24,324 bases of DNA from a virus. A program made the position numbers and the translations under genes. Below the pieces are notes generated by a model that saw only the letters and a program-made list of their open reading frames with translations, made no database searches and was not told where the DNA came from. The stretch's first letter is position 1. Each line of letters opens with the position of its first letter. Below are positions 2,995 through 21,376 of this stretch, in pieces. The stretch lies in UHGV virus genome UHGV-0175638; one strand, written 5' to 3'.

Positions 2995-3026
2995 TTCGAT
3001 TCTGAAATACATCAGAGGCATTGACC

Positions 3027-4577: not shown

Positions 4578-5431
4578 GCACCATCCTGAAATGGGCGGGT
4601 AATAAAACCGCCATTATGTCCGAACTGAAAAAATACCTTCCTGCTGGCCCGCGACTGGTTGAACCTTTCGCGGGTTCTTGTGCTGTGATGATGGCGACGG
4701 ATTACCCCAGCTATCTGGTTGCGGATATTAATCCTGATTTAATCAACCTCTATAAAAAGATTGCCGCTGATTGCGAAGCGTTTATATCTCGTGCCAAAGT
4801 TTTATTTGAGGAAGTAAACAGTGAGCTGGCTTATTACAACATAAGACAGGAGTTTAATTACTCAACTGAAATTACTGATTTCATGAAGGCGATATATTTC
4901 CTGTATCTCAATCGTCACGGTTACCGTGGTTTATGTCGCTATAACAAGAGCGGGTATTTCAACATTCCCTACGGTAATTATAAAAATCCGTATTTCCCTG
5001 AAAAAGAAATTCGCGCATTTGCAGAGAAAGCCCAGCGGGCAACGTTTATCTGCGCGAGCTTTGATGAAACGCTGGCGATGCTGCAGGTGGGGGATGTGGT
5101 GTATTGCGATCCGCCGTATGACGGTACGTTTTCCGGCTATCACACTGATGGTTTCACTGAAGATGACCAGTATCACCTGGCATCCATTCTTGAACATCGG
5201 TCATCAGAAGGACATCCGGTCATTGTTTCTAACAATGACACATCCCTGATTCGTTCGCTGTATCGCAATTTTACTCACCACTATATCAAGGCAAAACGCA
5301 GCATCGGCGTGTCAGCTGGCGAGGGTAAATCTGCAACAGAAATCATTGCTGTTTCCGGGCCGAGCTGCTGGTTGGGATTTGATCCTTCGCGTGGCGTGGA
5401 TAGTTCTGCCGTGTACGGAGTGTGTGTATGA
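4574..5431 (+). CDS. dam: DNA N6-adenine methyltransferase (Dam-like, orphan)
   Basis: ATG at 4574 preceded by GGAGG; N-terminal LKWAGNK...EPFAGS (AdoMet binding) and the DPPY catalytic motif (VYCDPPYDG); no adjacent restriction endonuclease. Confidence 0.85.
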
Positions 5432-7842
5432 GTCATGACGATATGAACAATTGCAGCGGCTTTAACGAGGCCGCCGCAGCATTTTCATGGAACGGCTCGA
5501 AAAAGGCCATTAACCCTTATCTGGACCCGGCGGAAGTTGCGCCGGAGTCTGCACTTTCAAACCTGATCACTCTGTACGCTGCCGATAACGAGCAGGAGCA
5601 ACTGCGCCGCGAGGCACTGAGTGAGCAGGTCTGGGAGCGTTATTTCTTTAATGAATCCCGTGATCCTGTCCAGCGCGAAATGGAGCAGGATAAGCTCATT
5701 AGCCGGGCAAAGCTGGCGCATGAGCAGCAGCGTTTTAATCCGGACATGGTCATTCTGGCGGACGTAAACGCCCAGCCTTCCCATATCAGCAAGCCGCTGA
5801 TGCAACGTATTGAATACTTCAGCAGCCTGGGCAGGCCAAAGGCTTATTCCCGCTATTTGCGTGAGACGATTAAGCCATGTCTGGAGCGACTGGATTGTGT
5901 ACGTGACAGTCAGCTATCTGTTTCTTTCCGTTTTATGGCAAGCCATCAAGGGCTGGAGGGGCTGCTGATCCTGCCTGAAATGAGCCAGGATCAGGTGAAA
6001 CGCCTGTCCACCCTGGTAGCAGCGCATATGAGCATGTGTCTTGAGGACGCTTGTGGTGATTTGTATGCCACCGATGACGTTAAGCCAGAAGAAATCCGCA
6101 AGACATGGGAAAAGGTGGCAGCGGAAACCCTGCGTCTGGATGTTATCCCGCCTGCGTTTGAGAAACTTCGTCGGAAAAGAAACCGCCGCAAACCAGTGCC
6201 CTATGAACTCATCCCGGGTTCGCTGGCGCGTATGTTGTGTGCCGACTGGTGGTATCGGAAATTATGGAAGATGCGTTGCGAATGGCGGGAAGAGCAGTTG
6301 CGTGCTGTCTGCCTGGTCAGCAAAAAAGCATCCCCCTATGTCAGCTATGAAGCCGTGATGCATAAACGTGAGCAGCGCCGTAAGTCGCTGGAGTTTTTTC
6401 GTTCTCATGAACTGGTGAACGAAGACGGCGACACGCTGGATATGGAAGATGTGGTAAACGCCAGCAGCAGCAACCCGGCGCATCGCCGCAATGAGATGAT
6501 GGCCTGTGTTAAAGGTCTGGAGCTTATCGCGGAAATGCGCAGTGACTGTGCCGTTTTCTACACTATCACCTGTCCGTCGCGTTTCCATTCCACGCTCAAT
6601 AACGGCAGACCAAACCCGACCTGGACAAACGCGACGGTAAGACAAAGTAGCGATTATCTGGTCGGCATGTTTGCTGCATTTCGTAAGGCTATGCATAAAG
6701 CCGAGTTGCGCTGGTATGGCGTGCGGGTAGCTGAGCCGCATCATGACGGTACTGTGCACTGGCATCTCATGTGTTTCATGCGTAAAAAAGACCGCCGCGC
6801 CATCACTGCATTACTGCGTAAGTTTGCCATCCGTGAAGACCGCGAGGAGCTGGGCAATAACACGGGACCACGCTTTAAGTCTGAGCTGATAAACCCGCGC
6901 AAAGGTACGCCAACAAGCTACATCGCGAAATACATCAGTAAGAACATTGACGGGCGTGGTCTGGCTGGGGAGATCAGCAAGGAAACGGGTAAATCCCTGC
7001 GTGATAACGCTGAATACGTTAATGCCTGGGCGTCTCTGCATCGTGTTCAGCAATTCCGCTTCTTTGGCATTCCGGGGCGTCAGGCTTACCGTGAACTGCG
7101 ATTGCTGGCTGGTCAGGCGGCAAGGCAACAGGGTGACAAAAAAGCAGGTGCGCCGGTACTGGATAACCCGCGCCTTGATGCCATTCTGGCTGCTGCTGAT
7201 GCTGGTTGTTTTGCCACCTATATCATGAAGCAGGGCGGCGTACTGGTTCCCCGTAAATATCACCTCATCAGAACCGCTTATGAAATCAACGAAGAGCCAA
7301 CCGCCTATGGCGATCACGGTATTCGTATTTATGGCATCTGGTCACCCATTGCAGAGGGCAAGATCTGCACTCATGCGGTGAAGTGGAAAATGGTTCGTAA
7401 GGCCGTTGACGTTCAGGAGGCGGCAGCCGACCAGGGCGCTTGCGCCCCTTGGACTCGTGGCAATAACTGTCCCCTTGCTGAAAATTTGTACCAACAAGGG
7501 AAAGACAAATCAGCTGATGGGGATACCAGAACGGATATCACCCGTATGGATGACAAGGAGTTGCACGATTACCTGCACAGTATGAACAAAAAAGAGCGCC
7601 GGGAACTGGCTGTAAGGTTACGCCTGGTGAAACCGAAACGGCGTAGAGACTACAAACAGCGAATTACAGACCATCAACGACAGCAGCTCGTCTATGAACT
7701 GAAGTCCAGAGGATTTGATGGCAGCGAGAAAGAGGTCGATTTACTCCTTCGCGGCGGCAGCATTCCGTCAGGAGCAGGCCTGCGTATCTTCTATCGGAAC
7801 CAGCGTTTGCAGGAAGATGATAAGTGGCGGAACCTGTATTAA
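5428..7842 (+). CDS. A: Rolling-circle replication initiation protein (P2 gpA / 186 A family)
   Basis: About 804 aa; HUH-type motif [10 protein letters not shown]; start ATG 5428 overlaps the dam stop (ATGA), implying translational coupling; size and position match gene A. Confidence 0.85.
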
Positions 7843-8769: not shown

Positions 8770-9939
8770 GTGATGATAAGTTTAGAAAAATTTCAAATTT
8801 CCAATTTTTGGGGTTCGAAAAATATTACTTTAGATTTTCATAGTAAGTTTGTGATCCTAACAGGACACAATGGCTCAGGTAAATCTACCATCTTGGAGAT
8901 TCTACATGATTCATTTAGTCTTATGCATGACGGGGAAGTTCAAACTATTCATGAGTCTTGGGCTAGTGAGCTAAATTTTAGCGATGAAAGTTTAGCTAGG
9001 AGCTATTTTTTAGGTGACGATATTGAATTGCAGGATGCTTTAAAAAGAAGAATAGAAAACAGTGCAAAAAAAACTATTAAACTTGATATTTTTAACTCAT
9101 TTGATTTCATAAATAAAACAATAAATAATTACACAAAGAAAAAAAATAAAGATTTTTTAGTTAAGAAAGATTTCTCCTCATCATTAAAGAAAAAATCTTT
9201 TATGACTATGCAGTATCATCCAACAAAAGATGATATGAAATTTCCTAAAACTATTTTCTTTAAAGATAGCCGAGTCCTCTATAACACGGTTAGCGATGAA
9301 GTTAAAGAAGTTAACGACTTAGATATATTCAACGAAGCAGACAGCATTAACAAGACACTTTACTTACTAATGAGTTCTTTCATTATTGAGGAGTCTAAGA
9401 ATAAAAAGCTGAAGTTCAAAGATAAAAATGAATTAAAAAAGATGTTTATAAATGAATTAAAATCAGAACAAGCTTTTATGGGGGAGCTAAAAACGTCTGA
9501 TGAACAGTTAATGTCAAAGCTTGAAAGTTTGGTTGATAGAGTGTTTTTAAAAGAAATAAAAAATAATTCGTGGGGTGGGGGGCTTTTTTCAGCAATAAAT
9601 GAATTCCTAAAGAAAACAAAAAGAAGTGTGACTAGAGATGAAAAAGGTTTCATTGCTTTTAAACTTAACAATGGAAGTATTATAAAGTGGTATAATTTTT
9701 CAAGAGGTGAGAAAACTCTTCTTGTTCTTTTGTTAAGTGTTTTTTTGAATAAAGATAAAGATGTTATTTTTATTTTGGATGAACCAGATTTATCATTACA
9801 CATTGAGTGGCAGGAATTATTATTACCTAATTTGTCGCGTTTAGCTCCGGAGAGACAGTTTATATTATCTACACATTCCCCTGCTCTTGTAGGTAATATC
9901 GAAGAGCAATACTTAAATATTGCTGCTATTACGGAGTGA
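8770..9939 (+). CDS. ABC/SMC-like P-loop ATPase (389 aa), first gene of the AT-rich cargo cassette; candidate defence ATPase (AriA/OLD-ATPase-like)
   Basis: Walker A GHNGSGKST; signature-like FSRGEKTLL; Walker B VIFILDEPDLSLH; H-loop LSTHSP; long Lys/Asn-rich insert between Walker A and B; strongly AT-rich; ATG at 8773 preceded by AGGGAAG. Confidence 0.75.
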   Translation: MMISLEKFQISNFWGSKNITLDFHSKFVILTGHNGSGKSTILEILHDSFSLMHDGEVQTIHESWASELNFSDESLARSYFLGDDIELQDALKRRIENSAKKTIKLDIFNSFDFINKTINNYTKKKNKDFLVKKDFSSSLKKKSFMTMQYHPTKDDMKFPKTIFFKDSRVLYNTVSDEVKEVNDLDIFNEADSINKTLYLLMSSFIIEESKNKKLKFKDKNELKKMFINELKSEQAFMGELKTSDEQLMSKLESLVDRVFLKEIKNNSWGGGLFSAINEFLKKTKRSVTRDEKGFIAFKLNNGSIIKWYNFSRGEKTLLVLLLSVFLNKDKDVIFILDEPDLSLHIEWQELLLPNLSRLAPERQFILSTHSPALVGNIEEQYLNIAAITE

Positions 9940-9945
9940 GTTATT

Positions 9946-10983
9946 ATGGATGTTAATTCTCTCGGGTTCAAATCTCAGTCATCTTATTACAAAAAGTCAT
10001 CTATTTTTTTGGGTGAGAATCAACCAAGATGGGTTGCTGTCTGGGTCGAATCAGATGATGATAAAAAACTATGGTTTCCAGTGTTGAAGCATTCATATAA
10101 AAAAATAAACTTTAAATTTCATATTGCCTCCCTGCATAAGTTTAAAGATGGAAAGATATCTGATGGATGTTCAAGAATTTTTGCAAAAATTAAGAGCGGT
10201 GAAATTGAACTAGGAAGTTCCACAATTGCTTGCTTAGATAGCGATTACAGCTATATATCAGGTAACTATGCTTGCAAGCAAAAGGAATTATTGGAATCAC
10301 CTCATGTTTTTCAAACATATGTCCATTCTAAGGAGAATATATATGTTCACCCGATTGGAATTATTCAACTTTTTGAGCGTGCTTTAGGTGAAGACTTGGA
10401 GCAGTTAGGTATAAATGTAGAATGTTTTACTGAAAAATTATCCATCTCAATATATGAATATCTTGTAAAGTTGATATCGCTCTATCGCCTAAATGATCTA
10501 AAAGCATTCGATCTATATCATAAACAGTTCATGGATAATTTCAAAACAATTATGAATGAGATGAAATTACCAGAGGATCTCTCGTCTGATTATGAAAGCC
10601 TTTTGAAGGCGAAGCTTACTGATTTTGATACGGAACTTACACAGCATATAAAAAGCACTCATGGAATAAGTGTGATTGATGATACAAATCAAAGATTTAG
10701 AGAGATTGAAGTTAATCCGTCTGATTCATTGAACTTTATACGTGGCCATGATTTGTATCCTGTAATGATGAAAATATATAAGAGTATAGATCAGTATGTT
10801 TTCAAAGTTAAACGTGATCAATATAATCAAGAACACATATCTGATGAGATAAGGCAAAAGAAACAGAGGGAGATGGGTAATAAACGTGTGGATATTGAAG
10901 ACTTAATATGTACCCGGGGTGATGTTAAGGATAATCAATATTTCTCACGCACCATTAAGAAGCTTAATACATTGTTTGCATAG
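9946..10983 (+). CDS. Partner protein (345 aa) with Toprim-like acidic motifs (DUF4435/OLD-nuclease-like); candidate effector
   Basis: Starts 6 nt after the ATPase stop with GGAG upstream (operon); N-terminal VAVWVESDDDKK (Toprim-like E...D) and ACLDSDYSY (DxD-like); AT-rich. Fold assignment is inference from motifs only. Confidence 0.6.
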   Translation: MDVNSLGFKSQSSYYKKSSIFLGENQPRWVAVWVESDDDKKLWFPVLKHSYKKINFKFHIASLHKFKDGKISDGCSRIFAKIKSGEIELGSSTIACLDSDYSYISGNYACKQKELLESPHVFQTYVHSKENIYVHPIGIIQLFERALGEDLEQLGINVECFTEKLSISIYEYLVKLISLYRLNDLKAFDLYHKQFMDNFKTIMNEMKLPEDLSSDYESLLKAKLTDFDTELTQHIKSTHGISVIDDTNQRFREIEVNPSDSLNFIRGHDLYPVMMKIYKSIDQYVFKVKRDQYNQEHISDEIRQKKQREMGNKRVDIEDLICTRGDVKDNQYFSRTIKKLNTLFA

Positions 10984-11067: not shown

Positions 11068-12096
11068 CTAGAGGTTGTATACATCAAATTTTATGATTTC
11101 TTCTCCATGCCAGTCATTTAACTCCATCATTCTTTTTTGTAGAGGAATAAGTTCATTTCTTACAAATACTTTACTAGCCTTCTCCACATCCCCAAAACCA
11201 CCAACATTACTTGGCATGATCCCCATCATCTGCGGCGGAACGCGGTGCGCTGCCATCATGTCATCCCGGCTCACGTTCTTGATGTTCAGAAACTCATCTT
11301 TTGCTGCGACTTCTGACAACGGGATGATTTGGATGCCGTCCTTCTTTCCGTTGGGGGAGTACATAAACAGGTTACGGAAGTTACCAGGACCTTTGGCGCT
11401 TTTCATCGCATTGCGGAGGTTGTTCACATCCTCCTGGTTCTGCGCTGCATCGGTCATGTACATGATGAAGCCTGCATGACTGCCGTTAATGTAATACTTG
11501 CGGCGGAACAGCGTGGCGGACTCGTTGAGCAGAGCTGACGGAATAGCAGAAAGATAACCGGGCAGGCCGTAGATCTCCTGGTTGATGTCCGGTTCCATCA
11601 GATGAAAAATGTTGCCTTTCGTGAACTGATACGGCTGCGTAGTCATGCCGTATTGCACAAACCAGTAGGTATCAAGGTCTAACCCGCGTCGGGTGTATTT
11701 TGCCAGTGCAGGCTCAAGGGCGATAACTTCACCGAAGCGGTTCGTGCGTTTCTCCAGGTAGGCGTTACCAAAAACCAGATAGTCCTGTACAAAACGCGAA
11801 AAAGCCTGCTGGCTGAGCAGCGGGTGAGGGATGTAGGTGCTGGTCAGAATGTTGCACTTCACTGCAATCGGTGAGCTGTGATGCACGGCGGCGCGGAAGG
11901 TTCGCGCCAGTCCGTCGAAACTCACAGGCGGCTCGTACCAACGATCCATCTGTACGCATTCCACATAGTCCAGCAGTTCGCGGCGGTCCAGAACAGGAAC
12001 GGGATCACCGAAGCTGAATGCTTCGGCTGAAGTCTGGCTTTTATGCTGGATCTGTTTTGTCGACGCAGCGCGGTTCTTCTTACTCTTTCCCATCAA
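11068..12096 (-). CDS. Q: Portal protein (P2 gpQ family)
   Basis: 342 aa; first late gene on the minus strand; start overlaps the terminase stop; size, position and sequence resemble P2 Q from memory. Confidence 0.85.
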   Translation of the reverse strand: MMGKSKKNRAASTKQIQHKSQTSAEAFSFGDPVPVLDRRELLDYVECVQMDRWYEPPVSFDGLARTFRAAVHHSSPIAVKCNILTSTYIPHPLLSQQAFSRFVQDYLVFGNAYLEKRTNRFGEVIALEPALAKYTRRGLDLDTYWFVQYGMTTQPYQFTKGNIFHLMEPDINQEIYGLPGYLSAIPSALLNESATLFRRKYYINGSHAGFIMYMTDAAQNQEDVNNLRNAMKSAKGPGNFRNLFMYSPNGKKDGIQIIPLSEVAAKDEFLNIKNVSRDDMMAAHRVPPQMMGIMPSNVGGFGDVEKASKVFVRNELIPLQKRMMELNDWHGEEIIKFDVYNL

Positions 12097-13859
12097 AAAA
12101 TCTCCACAATATTGCTGGTATTGGCGGACTCGCCCTGCAGCGGTTCGTTAAACAGTGCGTGCATTGTTGCCCAAGCCAGATCGGCATGGCTGGCTTCTTC
12201 GCTGCGGCTGGCTTCATAGGTCGGGCGGTTGCCACTGGCAGTGGTAGCGCGACGGATTGCCATAAATGACTGCGCAATGTCGGTGTGCCCGGCGTCAAAC
12301 TCCAGACGGCGGTAGCTGATAATGTCGTAGGCCTTGAGTACCAGGGCGTTTTTAACGTTGGGGTTATAGACAAACTCCCTGACGGCAGGAAAAAACGCTT
12401 TCACGTTCTCGTAAACCCCGTGACCGACGCCGGTCGAGTCGATACCGATATAGGTCACGTTATACTGTTCGGTCAGTTTTTTGATGGCGTCAGCCTGGGC
12501 GCGGAAGTCCATCCCGCGCCACTGGTGACGCTCAAGAATGCGGAACTTACCACCCGGCACGGCTGGCGGAGCCACCACCACGCATCCGGCACTGTCGCCG
12601 TTCTGCGTACCTTTTGCCGGGTCATAACCGATCCACACTTCGCGCCAGCCAAACGGGCGCAGGGCCAGTGCATGAAAGTCGGTCCAGACTTCCCAGCTGT
12701 CCACCATGCACGCCTGCAGTTCGCTGAGCGGGAACACGGACGCGAGATCGTCCACGAACTCGCACATCAGCAGGTTCTGGTATTCGTCCGGGCTGTACTC
12801 CATGCGCAGCTGGTCGAGGTCGAACAGGTTACAGCCGCCGCGCACCGCATCTTCCACGGTGACTATCTGGCGGTATTGCCCGTCTGCGCACAGCAGGCCG
12901 GGGGCCAGATTGCTGTGGGACAGGTCGATGTCCACCTTGTCAGCTTTGTTGCGTCCACGGTTGAACAGCGCACCGGACCAGAACGGATAAGCACTGTGGG
13001 TCAGGCTGGATGGCGTGGAAAAATAGGTCTGTCGCCATTTCTTGTGAATAGCCATACCGGAAGCCACTTTGCGCAACTCCTGGAATTTCGGTATCCAGAA
13101 ATATTCATCCAGATACAGGTTGCCGTGGTAACTCTGCGCCGTGCGGGCATTGGTGCCGAGGAAGTAAAGCGTGGCCCCGTTAGGAAGCACCATCGGATCG
13201 CCTTTCAGCTCCACCTCGACTTCTTTGGCGAAGTCGATGATGTACTGCTTAAAGACGTGAGCCTGTGCCTTACTGGCAGAAAGGAAAATCTGGTTACGTC
13301 CGGTAAGCAGGGCGTCAATCAGGGCTTCACGGGAAAAGTAAAAGGTCGCGCCGATCTGGCGTGACTTCAGCAGGTTGCGGATGCGGTTGGTTTTTCCGGC
13401 TTCCCACCAGTGGCGCTGGTAGTTGAACATGGAGGAATGGAAGATTTCTTCCAGTTTCTCTATCTGTTCATCGGTGAAAACATTCTTTTCCGGCTGACGG
13501 CGCGGGCCTTTGTTGCGGTTGGCGACGTTAGGGTTTAAGTCGGCTTCGTTGCCGCCATTGTTAAACTTGCCGATCCGCGCGTGGCGCTCAGACTGGCGCG
13601 CCAGCAGGTCAATCTCTTTGAAATCTTTCCCTTCTTTGTGCTCCTTCATGATGAGCTGGCAGTAGCGTGCGGCGGTGGTGAGCTGCATCTGATCCAGCGG
13701 CCCATAGTCACCCCACTTGTCGCGTTTTTTCCAGCTGTGAACGGTTGCAACTTTCTCGCCCAGCATTTCAGCAATGCGGGCTACGCGGTATCCCTGAAAG
13801 TACAGCAGCATGGCCTGCCGACGGGGATCGAGATCTGCGGGTGTCAGTGTGGTGTTCAT
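12093..13859 (-). CDS. P: Terminase large (ATPase) subunit (P2 gpP family)
   Basis: 588 aa; divergent from the capsid operon; size, position and sequence resemble P2 P from memory. Confidence 0.85.
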   Translation of the reverse strand: MNTTLTPADLDPRRQAMLLYFQGYRVARIAEMLGEKVATVHSWKKRDKWGDYGPLDQMQLTTAARYCQLIMKEHKEGKDFKEIDLLARQSERHARIGKFNNGGNEADLNPNVANRNKGPRRQPEKNVFTDEQIEKLEEIFHSSMFNYQRHWWEAGKTNRIRNLLKSRQIGATFYFSREALIDALLTGRNQIFLSASKAQAHVFKQYIIDFAKEVEVELKGDPMVLPNGATLYFLGTNARTAQSYHGNLYLDEYFWIPKFQELRKVASGMAIHKKWRQTYFSTPSSLTHSAYPFWSGALFNRGRNKADKVDIDLSHSNLAPGLLCADGQYRQIVTVEDAVRGGCNLFDLDQLRMEYSPDEYQNLLMCEFVDDLASVFPLSELQACMVDSWEVWTDFHALALRPFGWREVWIGYDPAKGTQNGDSAGCVVVAPPAVPGGKFRILERHQWRGMDFRAQADAIKKLTEQYNVTYIGIDSTGVGHGVYENVKAFFPAVREFVYNPNVKNALVLKAYDIISYRRLEFDAGHTDIAQSFMAIRRATTASGNRPTYEASRSEEASHADLAWATMHALFNEPLQGESANTSNIVEIF

Positions 13860-13905
13860 GGCACAAACCTACAGCCTTGAATGAAGGCTTTCCCCGCCTG
13901 CGGTT

Positions 13906-13923
13906 TGTGTGGTTGTCGGTACA
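13906..13923 (+). promoter_or_regulatory. Late-promoter activator site (TGT-N12-ACA dyad, Ogr/B-type) in the P/O divergent region
   Basis: TGTGTGGTTGTCGGTACA, centred about 87 nt upstream of the O ATG; a near-identical 18-mer occurs upstream of V. Confidence 0.55.
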
Positions 13924-14001: not shown

Positions 14002-14835
14002 ATGACAGTGAAAGCAAAGCGTTTTCGCATCGGGGTGGAAGGTGCCACTACCGACGGACGTGAAATCCAGCGTGAATGGCTGGAACAGATGGCAGCCAGC
14101 TACAACCCGGCGGTGTATACCGCGCTGATTAACCTTGAGCACATCAAGTCTTATCTGCCGGACAGCACCTTTAACCGCTACGGCAAGGTGACGGCGCTGT
14201 TTGCTGAAGAAATCACGGAAGGTCCGCTGGCAGGCAAGATGGCGCTGTATGCCGACGTTGAGCCAACGGAGTCCCTGGTGGAACTGGTGAAAAAAGGCCA
14301 GAAATTATTCACCTCTATGGAAGTCAGCCCGAAGTTCGCTGATACGGGCAAAGCCTACCTGGTCGGCCTGGCTGCCACTGATGACCCTGCCAGTCTGGGT
14401 ACGGAAATGCTGACATTCAGCGCCAGTGCAGCCCATAACCCGCTGGCAAACCGCAAGCAGAATCCCGCCAATCTTTTTACCGCTGCAGAGGAAACGGTGA
14501 TCGAACTGGAAGAAATCCAGGAGGACAAGCCGTCCCTGTTTGCCCGTGTCACGGCGCTGTTTACCAAAAAAGAGCAGTCCGATGACGCCCGGTTCTCTGA
14601 TGTGCATAAGGCCGTGGAGCTGGTCGCCACTGAGCAGCAGAACCTGAGCGCACGCACCGAAAAATCCCTGTCTGAGCAGGAAGAACGCCTGTCTGAGCTG
14701 GAGACTGCTCTGCAGGAGCAGCAAACCGCCTTTAACGAACTGGTGAATAAGCTGAGTCATGAAGACAGCCGCCAGGACTACCGCCAGCGTGCAACAGGCG
14801 GTAACGCCCCCGCTGACACTCTGACCAATTGCTGA
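14002..14835 (+). CDS. O: Capsid scaffolding protein (P2 gpO family)
   Basis: 277 aa; ATG at 14002 preceded by GGAG; acidic, coiled-coil-rich C-terminal half; first gene of the rightward capsid operon. Confidence 0.8.
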   Translation: MTVKAKRFRIGVEGATTDGREIQREWLEQMAASYNPAVYTALINLEHIKSYLPDSTFNRYGKVTALFAEEITEGPLAGKMALYADVEPTESLVELVKKGQKLFTSMEVSPKFADTGKAYLVGLAATDDPASLGTEMLTFSASAAHNPLANRKQNPANLFTAAEETVIELEEIQEDKPSLFARVTALFTKKEQSDDARFSDVHKAVELVATEQQNLSARTEKSLSEQEERLSELETALQEQQTAFNELVNKLSHEDSRQDYRQRATGGNAPADTLTNC

Positions 14836-18973: not shown

Positions 18974-19370
18974 TAAAGCAGTGCCTTATGTCCGCAATAA
19001 CCCGGACAAACTGCATCTGTTTGTGGATAACGGTTCGCTGGTTGCCACGGGGACCAGCTCCATGTCGTGGGAGTACCGTTACACCCTGAACGCAGTGATT
19101 GAGGATTTCAGCGGCGACCAGAATCTGCTGATGGCCCCGGTTTTGCTGTGGCTGCGGGATAACCAGCCCGATGCCATCAATAACCCGGCGTTACGGGAAA
19201 AACTATTCACCTTTGAGGTGGATATTCTGCGCAACGATGTCTGTGATATCAGCCTGAACCTGCAACTGACGGAGCGTGTGCTGGTCAGTACTGACGGCAG
19301 TGTGTCGAGCGTTGAAGCTATAGCGGAACCTGATGAACCTGAAGAAATGTGGACGGTGAAACGTGGCTGA
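18939..19370 (+). CDS. R: Tail completion protein R (P2 gpR family)
   Basis: Likely GTG start at 18939 preceded by AGGAG (track ORF starts at TTG 18918); resembles P2 R from memory. Confidence 0.75.
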   Translation: MNKPQSLRHALNKAVPYVRNNPDKLHLFVDNGSLVATGTSSMSWEYRYTLNAVIEDFSGDQNLLMAPVLLWLRDNQPDAINNPALREKLFTFEVDILRNDVCDISLNLQLTERVLVSTDGSVSSVEAIAEPDEPEEMWTVKRG

Positions 19371-19809
19371 ATTGCAGAAGGTGGACGACTGGCTGAGTGC
19401 CTTGCTGGCGAATCTGGAGCCAGCCGCAAGAAGCCGCATGATGCGCCAGCTGGCGCAGGAACTGCGCCGGACACAGCAGCAGAACATCAGGATGCAGCGC
19501 AATCCAGATGGCAGCAGTTATGAGCCGCGACGGGTAACAGCACGCAGCAAAAAGGGGCGCATCAAACGTCAGATGTTTACAAAGCTGCGCACCACAAAAT
19601 ACCTGAAAACTGCCGCCAGCGCCGATTCTGCCAGCGTGCAGTTTGAAGGTAAGGTGCAGCGCATTGCCCGCGTTCATCACTACGGCCTGCGTGATCGCAT
19701 CAGTCGAAGAGGACCGGAGGTCCGTTACGCAGAGCGTCGTCTCCTAGGCGTAAATGATGATGTGGAAACTGTCATTCAGGATGCTTTGCTAAATTGGTTA
19801 CAGAGATAA
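19363..19809 (+). CDS. S: Tail completion protein S (P2 gpS family)
   Basis: 148 aa; start overlaps the R stop; conserved order. Confidence 0.75.
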   Translation: MAELQKVDDWLSALLANLEPAARSRMMRQLAQELRRTQQQNIRMQRNPDGSSYEPRRVTARSKKGRIKRQMFTKLRTTKYLKTAASADSASVQFEGKVQRIARVHHYGLRDRISRRGPEVRYAERRLLGVNDDVETVIQDALLNWLQR

Positions 19810-19835
19810 ATAAAACCACATTTATAAAATTTAGT

Positions 19836-20750
19836 TTACTTTTTACTGATAAATGGATTCCTATCAATCCATGAGTCCCAGTTTATATAATTGTCATCAA
19901 ATCCTATGAATTTCATTAGTACAAGTGGCACCAGTAAATTCAAATTTGATGAGTAATCTTGAATTTCAATTTTGCCATCTGAGTTTTTTTCATCAAGATA
20001 GGCAATGTATTTACCATTGTGGAACAGCGAGTGACGGAGTTTGCAGTAATGCATAATGTTTCTTTGAGCTAATGTATGTCCTGTTTTTTCGACATTAAAA
20101 CCATATTCTTTTAAAACCTGAGTGATTATTTGTGGTGTTTTGGCAGGGGAGTAGTCATTTTTAATAAATCTGCAAAGTGCTTCTAGTGCCGAGAATAATA
20201 AATAATATCTGACGTCGATATAATTTATTGAGTCGCGGAAAGCTAGCATTGATTTAAAAAATGATGTTCTAAAGGCATCTTGTTTTAGCATGGCTTTACT
20301 ATTTAGTTTTTCCATGGCTAAGCAAATAAATTTTTCTCGGCTGTTTGGTGCAAAATAATCTTCCATGATGATAATGCCCGCACCCTTATCTCTTTTTTTG
20401 TCAAGCTTTTTGGGTAGAGATGGTTTGAAATTGAAAGGGGTTTCATCATTTTCAAGTTCTCCTGAAATGATTACATTTTTTTGTTCAATAAAACTAAGAA
20501 CTGCTTGTAAATCAAAAATAAGCTGCTGTTGAGTGGCGTAGTTATTCGAGTTTGGTTTGAAAAAACCAGTGAGGATGTACCTATCATTAGCCCAGCCATT
20601 TTTTTTTAACTCACTCCATGAACTGAAAATAGGAGTTAACTCACCACCGTCAAATGTGATTTTTTTAGTGAAATTAAATCCATAAATTGCGATTTGTGTC
20701 ATCTTAAATACCTTAGAAATTGTTTCTCTTTTGTGTGGTTCTCCATACAT
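19836..20750 (-). CDS. AT-rich hypothetical protein (288-304 aa) on the opposite strand inside the late region; candidate accessory/defence gene
   Basis: Long intact antisense ORF between S and V (position of P2 orf30); markedly AT-rich; alternative start ATG at 20702; C-terminal R-x4-H motif (LRHSLFH). Confidence 0.65.
   Translation of the reverse strand: MYGEPHKRETISKVFKMTQIAIYGFNFTKKITFDGGELTPIFSSWSELKKNGWANDRYILTGFFKPNSNNYATQQQLIFDLQAVLSFIEQKNVIISGELENDETPFNFKPSLPKKLDKKRDKGAGIIIMEDYFAPNSREKFICLAMEKLNSKAMLKQDAFRTSFFKSMLAFRDSINYIDVRYYLLFSALEALCRFIKNDYSPAKTPQIITQVLKEYGFNVEKTGHTLAQRNIMHYCKLRHSLFHNGKYIAYLDEKNSDGKIEIQDYSSNLNLLVPLVLMKFIGFDDNYINWDSWIDRNPFISKK
20732..20749 (+). promoter_or_regulatory. 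Late-promoter activator site (TGT-N12-ACA dyad) upstream of V
   Basis: TGTGTGGTTCTCCATACA, 14 of 18 identical to the dyad at 13906-13923; about 57 nt upstream of the V ATG; overlaps the 5' extension of the antisense ORF. Confidence 0.5.
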
Positions 20751-20797
20751 ACGCTCTGTATTACATCACTCTACCCGGTTGTGCAAGGATCGCTCTC

Positions 20798-21376
20798 ATG
20801 AATGCACAACTGACTGAAATCATGCGCCTTATCACCAACCTGATCCGCACTGGTGTAGTCACCGAGGTGGACCGGGAGAACTGGCTTTGCCGGGTGAAAA
20901 CGGGCGACCTTGAAACCAACTGGATTAACTGGCTGACACTGCGCGCGGGCAAATCGCGCACCTGGTGGAAACCGTCTGTGGGCGAGCAGGTTGTGCTGTT
21001 CAGCCTGGGTGGCAATCTGGAAACCGCCTTTGCGTTGCCCGCCATCTATTCGAATCAGTTCGCACCGCCGTCAACGTCGGCGGAAGCCTGCGTGACAGAA
21101 CATCCTGATGGTGGCTGGTTTGAATACGAACCAGCCACCGGGCGCTGGTATGTCAGGGGCATCAAATCCATGGTCATTGAGGCTGCCGACAACATCACCC
21201 TGAAAACCAGTGAGTTTGTGCTGGAGGCTGACCGCACGCGTATTAACAGTGAAGTGGTGATCAATGGTGGCGTTACCCAGGGCGGCGGTGCAATGAGTTC
21301 TAACGGGATCGTGGTTGATGCGCATCAGCATACTGGCGTCCTGAAAGGCGGCGACACAACCGGAGGCCCGGTATGA
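20798..21376 (+). CDS. V: Baseplate spike/assembly protein V (P2 gpV family)
   Basis: ATG at 20798 preceded by AAGGA (track ORF starts at 20720); N-terminus resembles P2 V from memory. Confidence 0.8.
   Translation: MNAQLTEIMRLITNLIRTGVVTEVDRENWLCRVKTGDLETNWINWLTLRAGKSRTWWKPSVGEQVVLFSLGGNLETAFALPAIYSNQFAPPSTSAEACVTEHPDGGWFEYEPATGRWYVRGIKSMVIEAADNITLKTSEFVLEADRTRINSEVVINGGVTQGGGAMSSNGIVVDAHQHTGVLKGGDTTGGPV

Follow-up and report, generated by a model that had tools for sequence, protein, structure and literature searches.

The dyad at positions 20732-20749 is, with a probability that we put at about 0.9, the activator-binding site of PV, the late promoter of the V-W-J-I-H-G operon in a P2-like (Peduoviridae) prophage, a reading drawn from its sequence and from analogy with phage P2. 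As such it is an element already known from P2, encountered here in a new sequence context. How would it work? A phage-encoded zinc-finger activator of the Ogr/B/Delta type would bind a TGT-N12-ACA site centred at about -56 and would recruit sigma-70 RNA polymerase to PV, a promoter that lacks a -35 element and whose extended -10 (TGcAAGGAT) is weak, and transcription would then begin at the ATG of V or 1 nt before it, yielding a leaderless V mRNA; we infer both the binding of an activator and the leaderless mRNA from the P2 annotation and the established biology of P2. The gene lying antisense between S and V, called the cargo gene here, would be a separate, horizontally acquired gene in the variable S-V slot (the position of P2 orf30). 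Its start codon is at 20702, 30 nt left of the dyad, and the longer open reading frame (ORF) that reaches into the dyad is an artefact, an ATG being spelt on the opposite strand by the right arm. The analysis itself shows this start, the sequence and position of the dyad, and the conservation of the dyad.

The stretch of DNA analysed (the window, 24,324 nt of virus genome UHGV-0175638) spans the early-to-late part of this P2-like prophage, with the replication gene A at 5422-7842, the terminase gene P at 12093-13859 (minus strand), the scaffold gene O at 14002-14835 and, as the last gene of the O operon, the tail completion gene S at 19363-19809 (plus strand; Pfam Phage_tail_S). Gene V (20798-21376, plus strand) encodes a baseplate spike protein of 192 aa with matches to Pfam Phage_base_V and Apex; its homologues are annotated from the same ATG, and W, J and I come after it.

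The dyad upstream of gene V

The dyad, TGTGTGGTTCTCCATACA, has the pattern TGT-N12-ACA on the plus strand; its arms (TGTGTGG and CCATACA) are complementary at six of seven positions, and its centre, at 20740.5, lies 57.5 nt 5' of the A of the V ATG (20798). The original prediction had placed a late-promoter dyad for V about 57 nt before the V start, within the longest antisense ORF and between the two candidate antisense start codons, and the DNA bears this out: the repeat lies between the ATGs at 20750-20748 and 20702, and its assignment to the late promoter of V is backed by the P2 annotation, by the match to the consensus and by constant spacing among relatives. The site stands directly upstream of V-W-J-I, which belongs to the V-G operon, the late operons being four in number (P-Q, O-S, V-G and F-D). 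On its own the window sequence proves nothing, since the bare TGT-N12-ACA pattern is not enriched in it (7 matches against 5.99 expected), and the case rests on comparison. A more elaborate pattern, TTGTGTG-N7-RTACA with one mismatch allowed, has just two matches in the window, the PV dyad and the site between P and O, a count that is descriptive only, the pattern having been built from the same two sites that it recovers. A search of 19700-20900 against Rfam found no family.

The P2 record gives the order S, terminator, Orf30 (9439-10224, minus strand, marked 'nonessential'), activator site and V. An 'activator binding site; activation of pV promoter' is annotated there at 10239-10266, with its centre 55.5 nt before V, and the 'transcription start site for V operon' at 10308, the very base at which the V coding sequence begins. 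Common to P2 and the window are S, an antisense ORF with its start codon a few tens of nt left of the activator site, the activator site itself some 55 nt before V, and a V gene that is apparently leaderless. The spacing differs slightly: the centre is at -57.5 in the window and at -55.5 in P2, so that the window dyad lies 2 nt farther from the ATG than the sites of P2 and of most relatives. A -10 stands at the same offset in both phages (TGcAATCTC in P2, TGcAAGGAT in the window), in each case an extended TGc followed by an AA-initial hexamer, and except for the arms and TTGTGCAA the promoter DNA of the window cannot be aligned with that of P2. It is on the P2 PV annotation at the same place, together with the conserved spacing, that the prediction of 20732-20749 as the PV activator-binding dyad is based. 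The -55 geometry is taken from the features in the P2 GenBank record and from a secondary citation in PMC3931495; that paper, citing Christie & Calendar 1985 and Julien & Calendar 1995, describes the four P2 late promoters as sharing TGT-N12-ACA and needing the zinc-finger activator Ogr.

The predicted extended -10 of PV, read from the sequence and from the alignment of the cargo family, occupies 20782-20790 on the plus strand, with TG at 20782-20783, then c, and the hexamer AAGGAT at 20785-20790. This is the sole -10-like element at the right distance, its hexamer is weak, a plus-strand scan with position weight matrices (PWMs) gave only weak scores, and no -35 element is recognisable. Its position would put the PV transcription start at 20797 or 20798.

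A sister site, near-identical to the PV dyad, lies in the P-O intergenic region (TTGTGTGGTTGTCGGTACA, 13905-13923). From the pattern match and the P2-like layout we take TGTGTGGTTGTCGGTACA (13906-13923, plus strand) as the shared PP/PO activator site; its centre, at 13914.5, lies at a distance of 55.5 nt from the start codon of P (ATG at 13859) and 87.5 nt from that of O (ATG at 14002). In P2 the transcription starts annotated for the single PP/PO site lie on either side of its centre, the left one at 56 nt and the right one at 55 nt, and the window site is related in the same way to P and O. The two window sites have nearly identical arms, and both are near-palindromic and located between divergent genes. 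Another TGT-N12-ACA match, TGTGGTGTTCATGGCACA (13848-13865), overlaps the P start codon and was considered as a separate PP site; its spacing is wrong for both PP and PO, and it is probably a chance match, 13906-13923 having P2-like spacing to both genes. We also note a -10-like hexamer, TAGGTT, at -12 to -7 of P, a position from which the P mRNA of this phage, too, may be leaderless, unlike that of P2, for which a 23-nt leader is annotated (start at 3016, coding sequence from 2993).

The 24-kb window stops among the tail genes and contains no ogr gene. In E. coli A16, a prophage whose cassette is 99.9% identical has a gene for an 'ogr/Delta-like zinc finger family protein' at its right end, following gene D, and the same prophage has, upstream of the tail sheath gene, at the PF position, the sequence TTGTGTGAATAACGGTACAA, which closely resembles the window dyad.

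V-upstream sequences of relatives and the S-V cassette

What is kept when the DNA in front of V changes? We read the 100 nt before V in 80 IMG/VR loci that encode a V protein of 94% identity or higher, and these fall into 25 distinct V-upstream sequences. A single TGT-N12-ACA centred at -54.5 to -57.5 from the V ATG is present in all 80 loci, and likewise in four loci with diverged cargo homologues, whereas the chance of finding the pattern in such a four-position window is about 0.0013 per sequence. When representatives of the 25 sequences, these four loci and P2 are combined into a set of 18 promoters, two of them share, at the median, 29% identity between -45 and -1 and are thus essentially unrelated, and it is because the site keeps its position in 16-18 such unrelated V-upstream sequences that we judge the dyad to be more than chance. 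The six arm bases and the distance to the V ATG thus survive a swap of the promoter around them, a natural mutagenesis that defines what the activator needs.

The same 18 promoters have A at -11 in 14 cases (counting the A of the ATG as +1; binomial P ~4e-5) and T at -7 in 11, and TGnAAnnAT is kept in the intergenic alignment of the cargo family. A -10-like signal phased on the V ATG supports a V mRNA that is leaderless, or has a 1-nt leader, as a trait of the family, and from this sequence pattern and the P2 analogy V is probably translated from leaderless or nearly leaderless mRNA throughout this phage group. The PV site of P2, TTGTCTGGTAGTTCTACAA (1740-1767 of locus L005, corresponding to P2 10239-10266), is itself TGT-N11-ACA, compared with N12 in all of the 17 other PV promoters, so the TGT-N12-ACA consensus is a loose one.

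The DNA between S and V forms a variable cassette (19765-20797) that takes in the final ~15 codons of S, the cargo gene and all of the PV promoter, as delimited by comparison with relatives, megablast pieces and composition. Its borders were set by ungapped comparison with a relative that has no cargo (L001) and one with another cargo (L002), and homology to these relatives is lost precisely at the ATG of V on the right and some 45 nt short of the stop codon of S on the left. The right-hand break means that the entire PV promoter is part of what is swapped. The left-hand border lies inside S (~19765-19809 against L001 and L002), the last ~15 S codons being exchanged together with the cargo, and more of them in phage Cartapus, so that near-identical phages have S proteins with different C-termini.

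In 76 relatives the upstream sequence was long enough for the slot to be read; 55 of them lack a cargo and have an S-V gap of 50-68 nt, and among the others there are 12 or more different inserts, most of them antisense and one (L037) clearly in the sense direction. The L037 insert is a 401-aa ORF at 217-1422 that ends just before the dyad; in two further loci (L030 and L061) the inserts are so long that S is not found within 1.5 kb of V. Earlier work has already described the orf30 position as variable (PMC6823313), and defence hotspots within the P2 tail genes have been mentioned (PMC13586616); in the literature searched we found no description of the PV promoter as part of the swapped cassette, or of this cargo family. 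That closely related P2-like phages exchange the entire PV promoter with the cargo, keeping TGT-N12-ACA and its distance to the V ATG, is a modest addition to this picture, and it is of use to anyone cloning cargo genes of the S-V slot with their 'native promoter'.

The dyad and the cargo gene

Does the dyad have a second role, towards the cargo gene (19836-20702, minus strand)? We consider it possible, if doubtful, that it acts as a switch, with the cargo promoter overlapping the dyad and PV, the activator or the PV polymerase shutting the cargo gene off in the late phase, and the cargo therefore being expressed in the lysogen only. The argument is one of space. With the right border of the cassette placed precisely at the V ATG, a cargo promoter carried on the cassette must lie within 20716-20797, and the dyad must then fall between about -33 and +30 of its start; an activator, or a polymerase bound at PV, would at such positions hinder rather than help the cargo promoter, and occlusion by either is possible. 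Moreover, seven unrelated antisense cargo genes and P2 orf30 all have start codons, supported by Shine-Dalgarno sequences, at 28.5-45.5 nt from the dyad centre, so that a tight overlap of start and dyad is a general feature of the S-V slot. Against this stands the weakness of any visible cargo promoter: the best minus-strand sigma-70 PWM score, 5.24, is not above chance (the median best score per 210-nt window segment is 5.44), a promoter tool scan reported none in the cargo-V intergenic region, and the alignment of the cargo family has no conserved minus-strand -10. A broader form of the idea, which we think rather unlikely, is that the slot swaps whole units of cargo plus PV and that the Ogr-family activator serves as a two-way toggle, turning the baseplate operon on and the cargo off in lytic development; antisense cargo genes that start within ~30-45 nt of the activator site must, on this reasoning, have their own promoters overlap it.

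The original prediction had proposed that activator binding at the near-palindromic dyad might also influence the cargo gene, or that transcription of V might interfere with it. One activator site switching on both V and the cargo has a precedent in P2, where a single site serves both of the divergent promoters PP and PO, its distance to their starts being 56 nt and 55 nt, and the window dyad is nearly palindromic. The geometry speaks against it. Both PP and PO starts lie ~55 nt from the centre, whereas at PV this holds for the rightward side only: a start 55-56 nt left of the centre would be at about 20685, a position within the cargo coding sequence, 17 nt past its first base, with no in-frame ATG nearby, and the other cargo classes show the same misfit. 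With cargo start codons just 28.5-45.5 nt from the dyad centre, activation in the manner of PP/PO is geometrically excluded, and bidirectional activation as a whole appears very improbable. Interference by collision fails as well, because V and the cargo gene are divergent and are transcribed in directions that never meet.

Antisense transcription arriving from the other side could also interfere with the cargo gene. The stop codons of S and the cargo gene are convergent and 26 nt apart (19810-19835), a promoter and terminator scan found no terminator between the two genes, and the fold of 19780-19870 is no better than that of shuffled sequences; P2, by contrast, has a terminator annotated between S and Orf30. 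Since none is seen here, the O operon may read through, antisense across the cargo gene, into V.

The longest antisense ORF (19836-20750, 304 aa) opens at 20750-20748, with an ATG that shares bases with the dyad's right arm, and the homologue cluster P0002 has been called with a similar 16-aa extension, which could suggest that the longer ORF is the real cargo gene and the dyad mere coding sequence. We regard this as extremely unlikely. Residue 17 of the long ORF is the Met encoded at 20702, and 16 of 17 aligned homologues have their N-terminus at the equivalent Met and lack the extension; the extension also lies outside the PHROG profile (residues 1-285 of the shorter protein align to positions 1-283 of the 283 in phrog_4373), and the RefSeq product uses the short start and is 288 aa long. 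A Shine-Dalgarno sequence, TAAGG (20711-20715, minus strand), stands 8 nt before the ATG at 20702, homologous loci carry equivalent ones, and there is none before the ATG at 20750. Even the residues that the extension shares with P0002 (MYG.PH, in P0002 MYGLPH) are the dyad arm read as protein. The shorter start, which the original prediction had favoured, is thus the one to annotate, and the ATG at 20748-20750 (minus strand), made of the right arm of the dyad plus the next T, is spurious. The least probable account of all, that the dyad is a chance palindrome or the site of a host factor such as CRP (consensus TGTGA-N6-TCACA, equivalent to TGT-N10-ACA), draws on the chance-level count of the pattern in the window and on the resemblance of the half-site TGTG to that of CRP, and it is contradicted by the N12 spacing, 2 bp longer than that of CRP, by the strictly kept position across unrelated promoters and by the matches to the PP/PO and PF sites of the same phage.

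Antisense cargo ORFs in the S-V slot are often over-extended into the dyad by gene callers or by the longest-ORF rule, because the right arm ACA plus a following T (ACAT on the plus strand) reads ATGT on the other strand. Examples are L007 (the P0002 protein, called at 305 aa), L068, L091 and Cartapus (L002), whose cargo comes out at 189 aa against 176 aa as annotated. For annotation the value lies in a cargo start fixed at 20702 and in an explanation of why ORFs in this slot are over-extended.

The cargo protein and other accessory genes

The cargo gene encodes a 288-aa protein of the uncharacterised family phrog_4373, a small family of ~287-aa hypothetical proteins in 39 clusters. Its GC content is ~0.34, compared with ~0.56-0.58 in the flanks. 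Enterobacterial members always occupy the S-V slot of P2-like prophages in antisense orientation, and the two divergent start codons are then 93-96 nt apart; distant members (P0029 and P0035, at loci L011 and L012), with 36-44% identity, occur on Shewanella and Acinetobacter chromosomes in non-phage contexts. The window protein is unrelated to P2 Orf30, and homology to the cargo of phage Cartapus was likewise considered, the comparison showing none in either case.

What might this protein do? Scans with Pfam and PADLOC gave no match, and a sequence-profile search of the PDB and Foldseek against the PDB returned nothing significant. Four residues (R223, L226, F227 and H228) are invariant in 30 sequences and fall in a predicted helix at 216-229, and the invariant R223-x4-H228 conforms to the R-x4-6-H motif of HEPN domains, to which the family also shows weak fold similarity. 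We tentatively suggest, on these modelled features, that the C-terminal domain is HEPN-like. The closest known systems would then include HEPN-domain toxins and abortive-infection proteins (HEPN/MNT toxins, AbiV and the HEPN domain of Csm6), and a HEPN-like cargo could possibly be toxic or defensive.

P2-like phages have several hotspots for accessory genes (old/tin near cos, Z/fun and the orf30 slot between S and V), in which low-GC cargo is swapped between otherwise near-identical phages, as it is here. The A-Q (old/tin) hotspot of the window is occupied too, by a two-gene PARIS-like defence system (8770-10983, plus strand) that consists of an AriA-like ABC ATPase at 8770-9939 (PADLOC AriA, E=8e-36) and an AriB-like DUF4435 protein at 9946-10983 (PADLOC AriB, E=8.5e-19), both on the plus strand.
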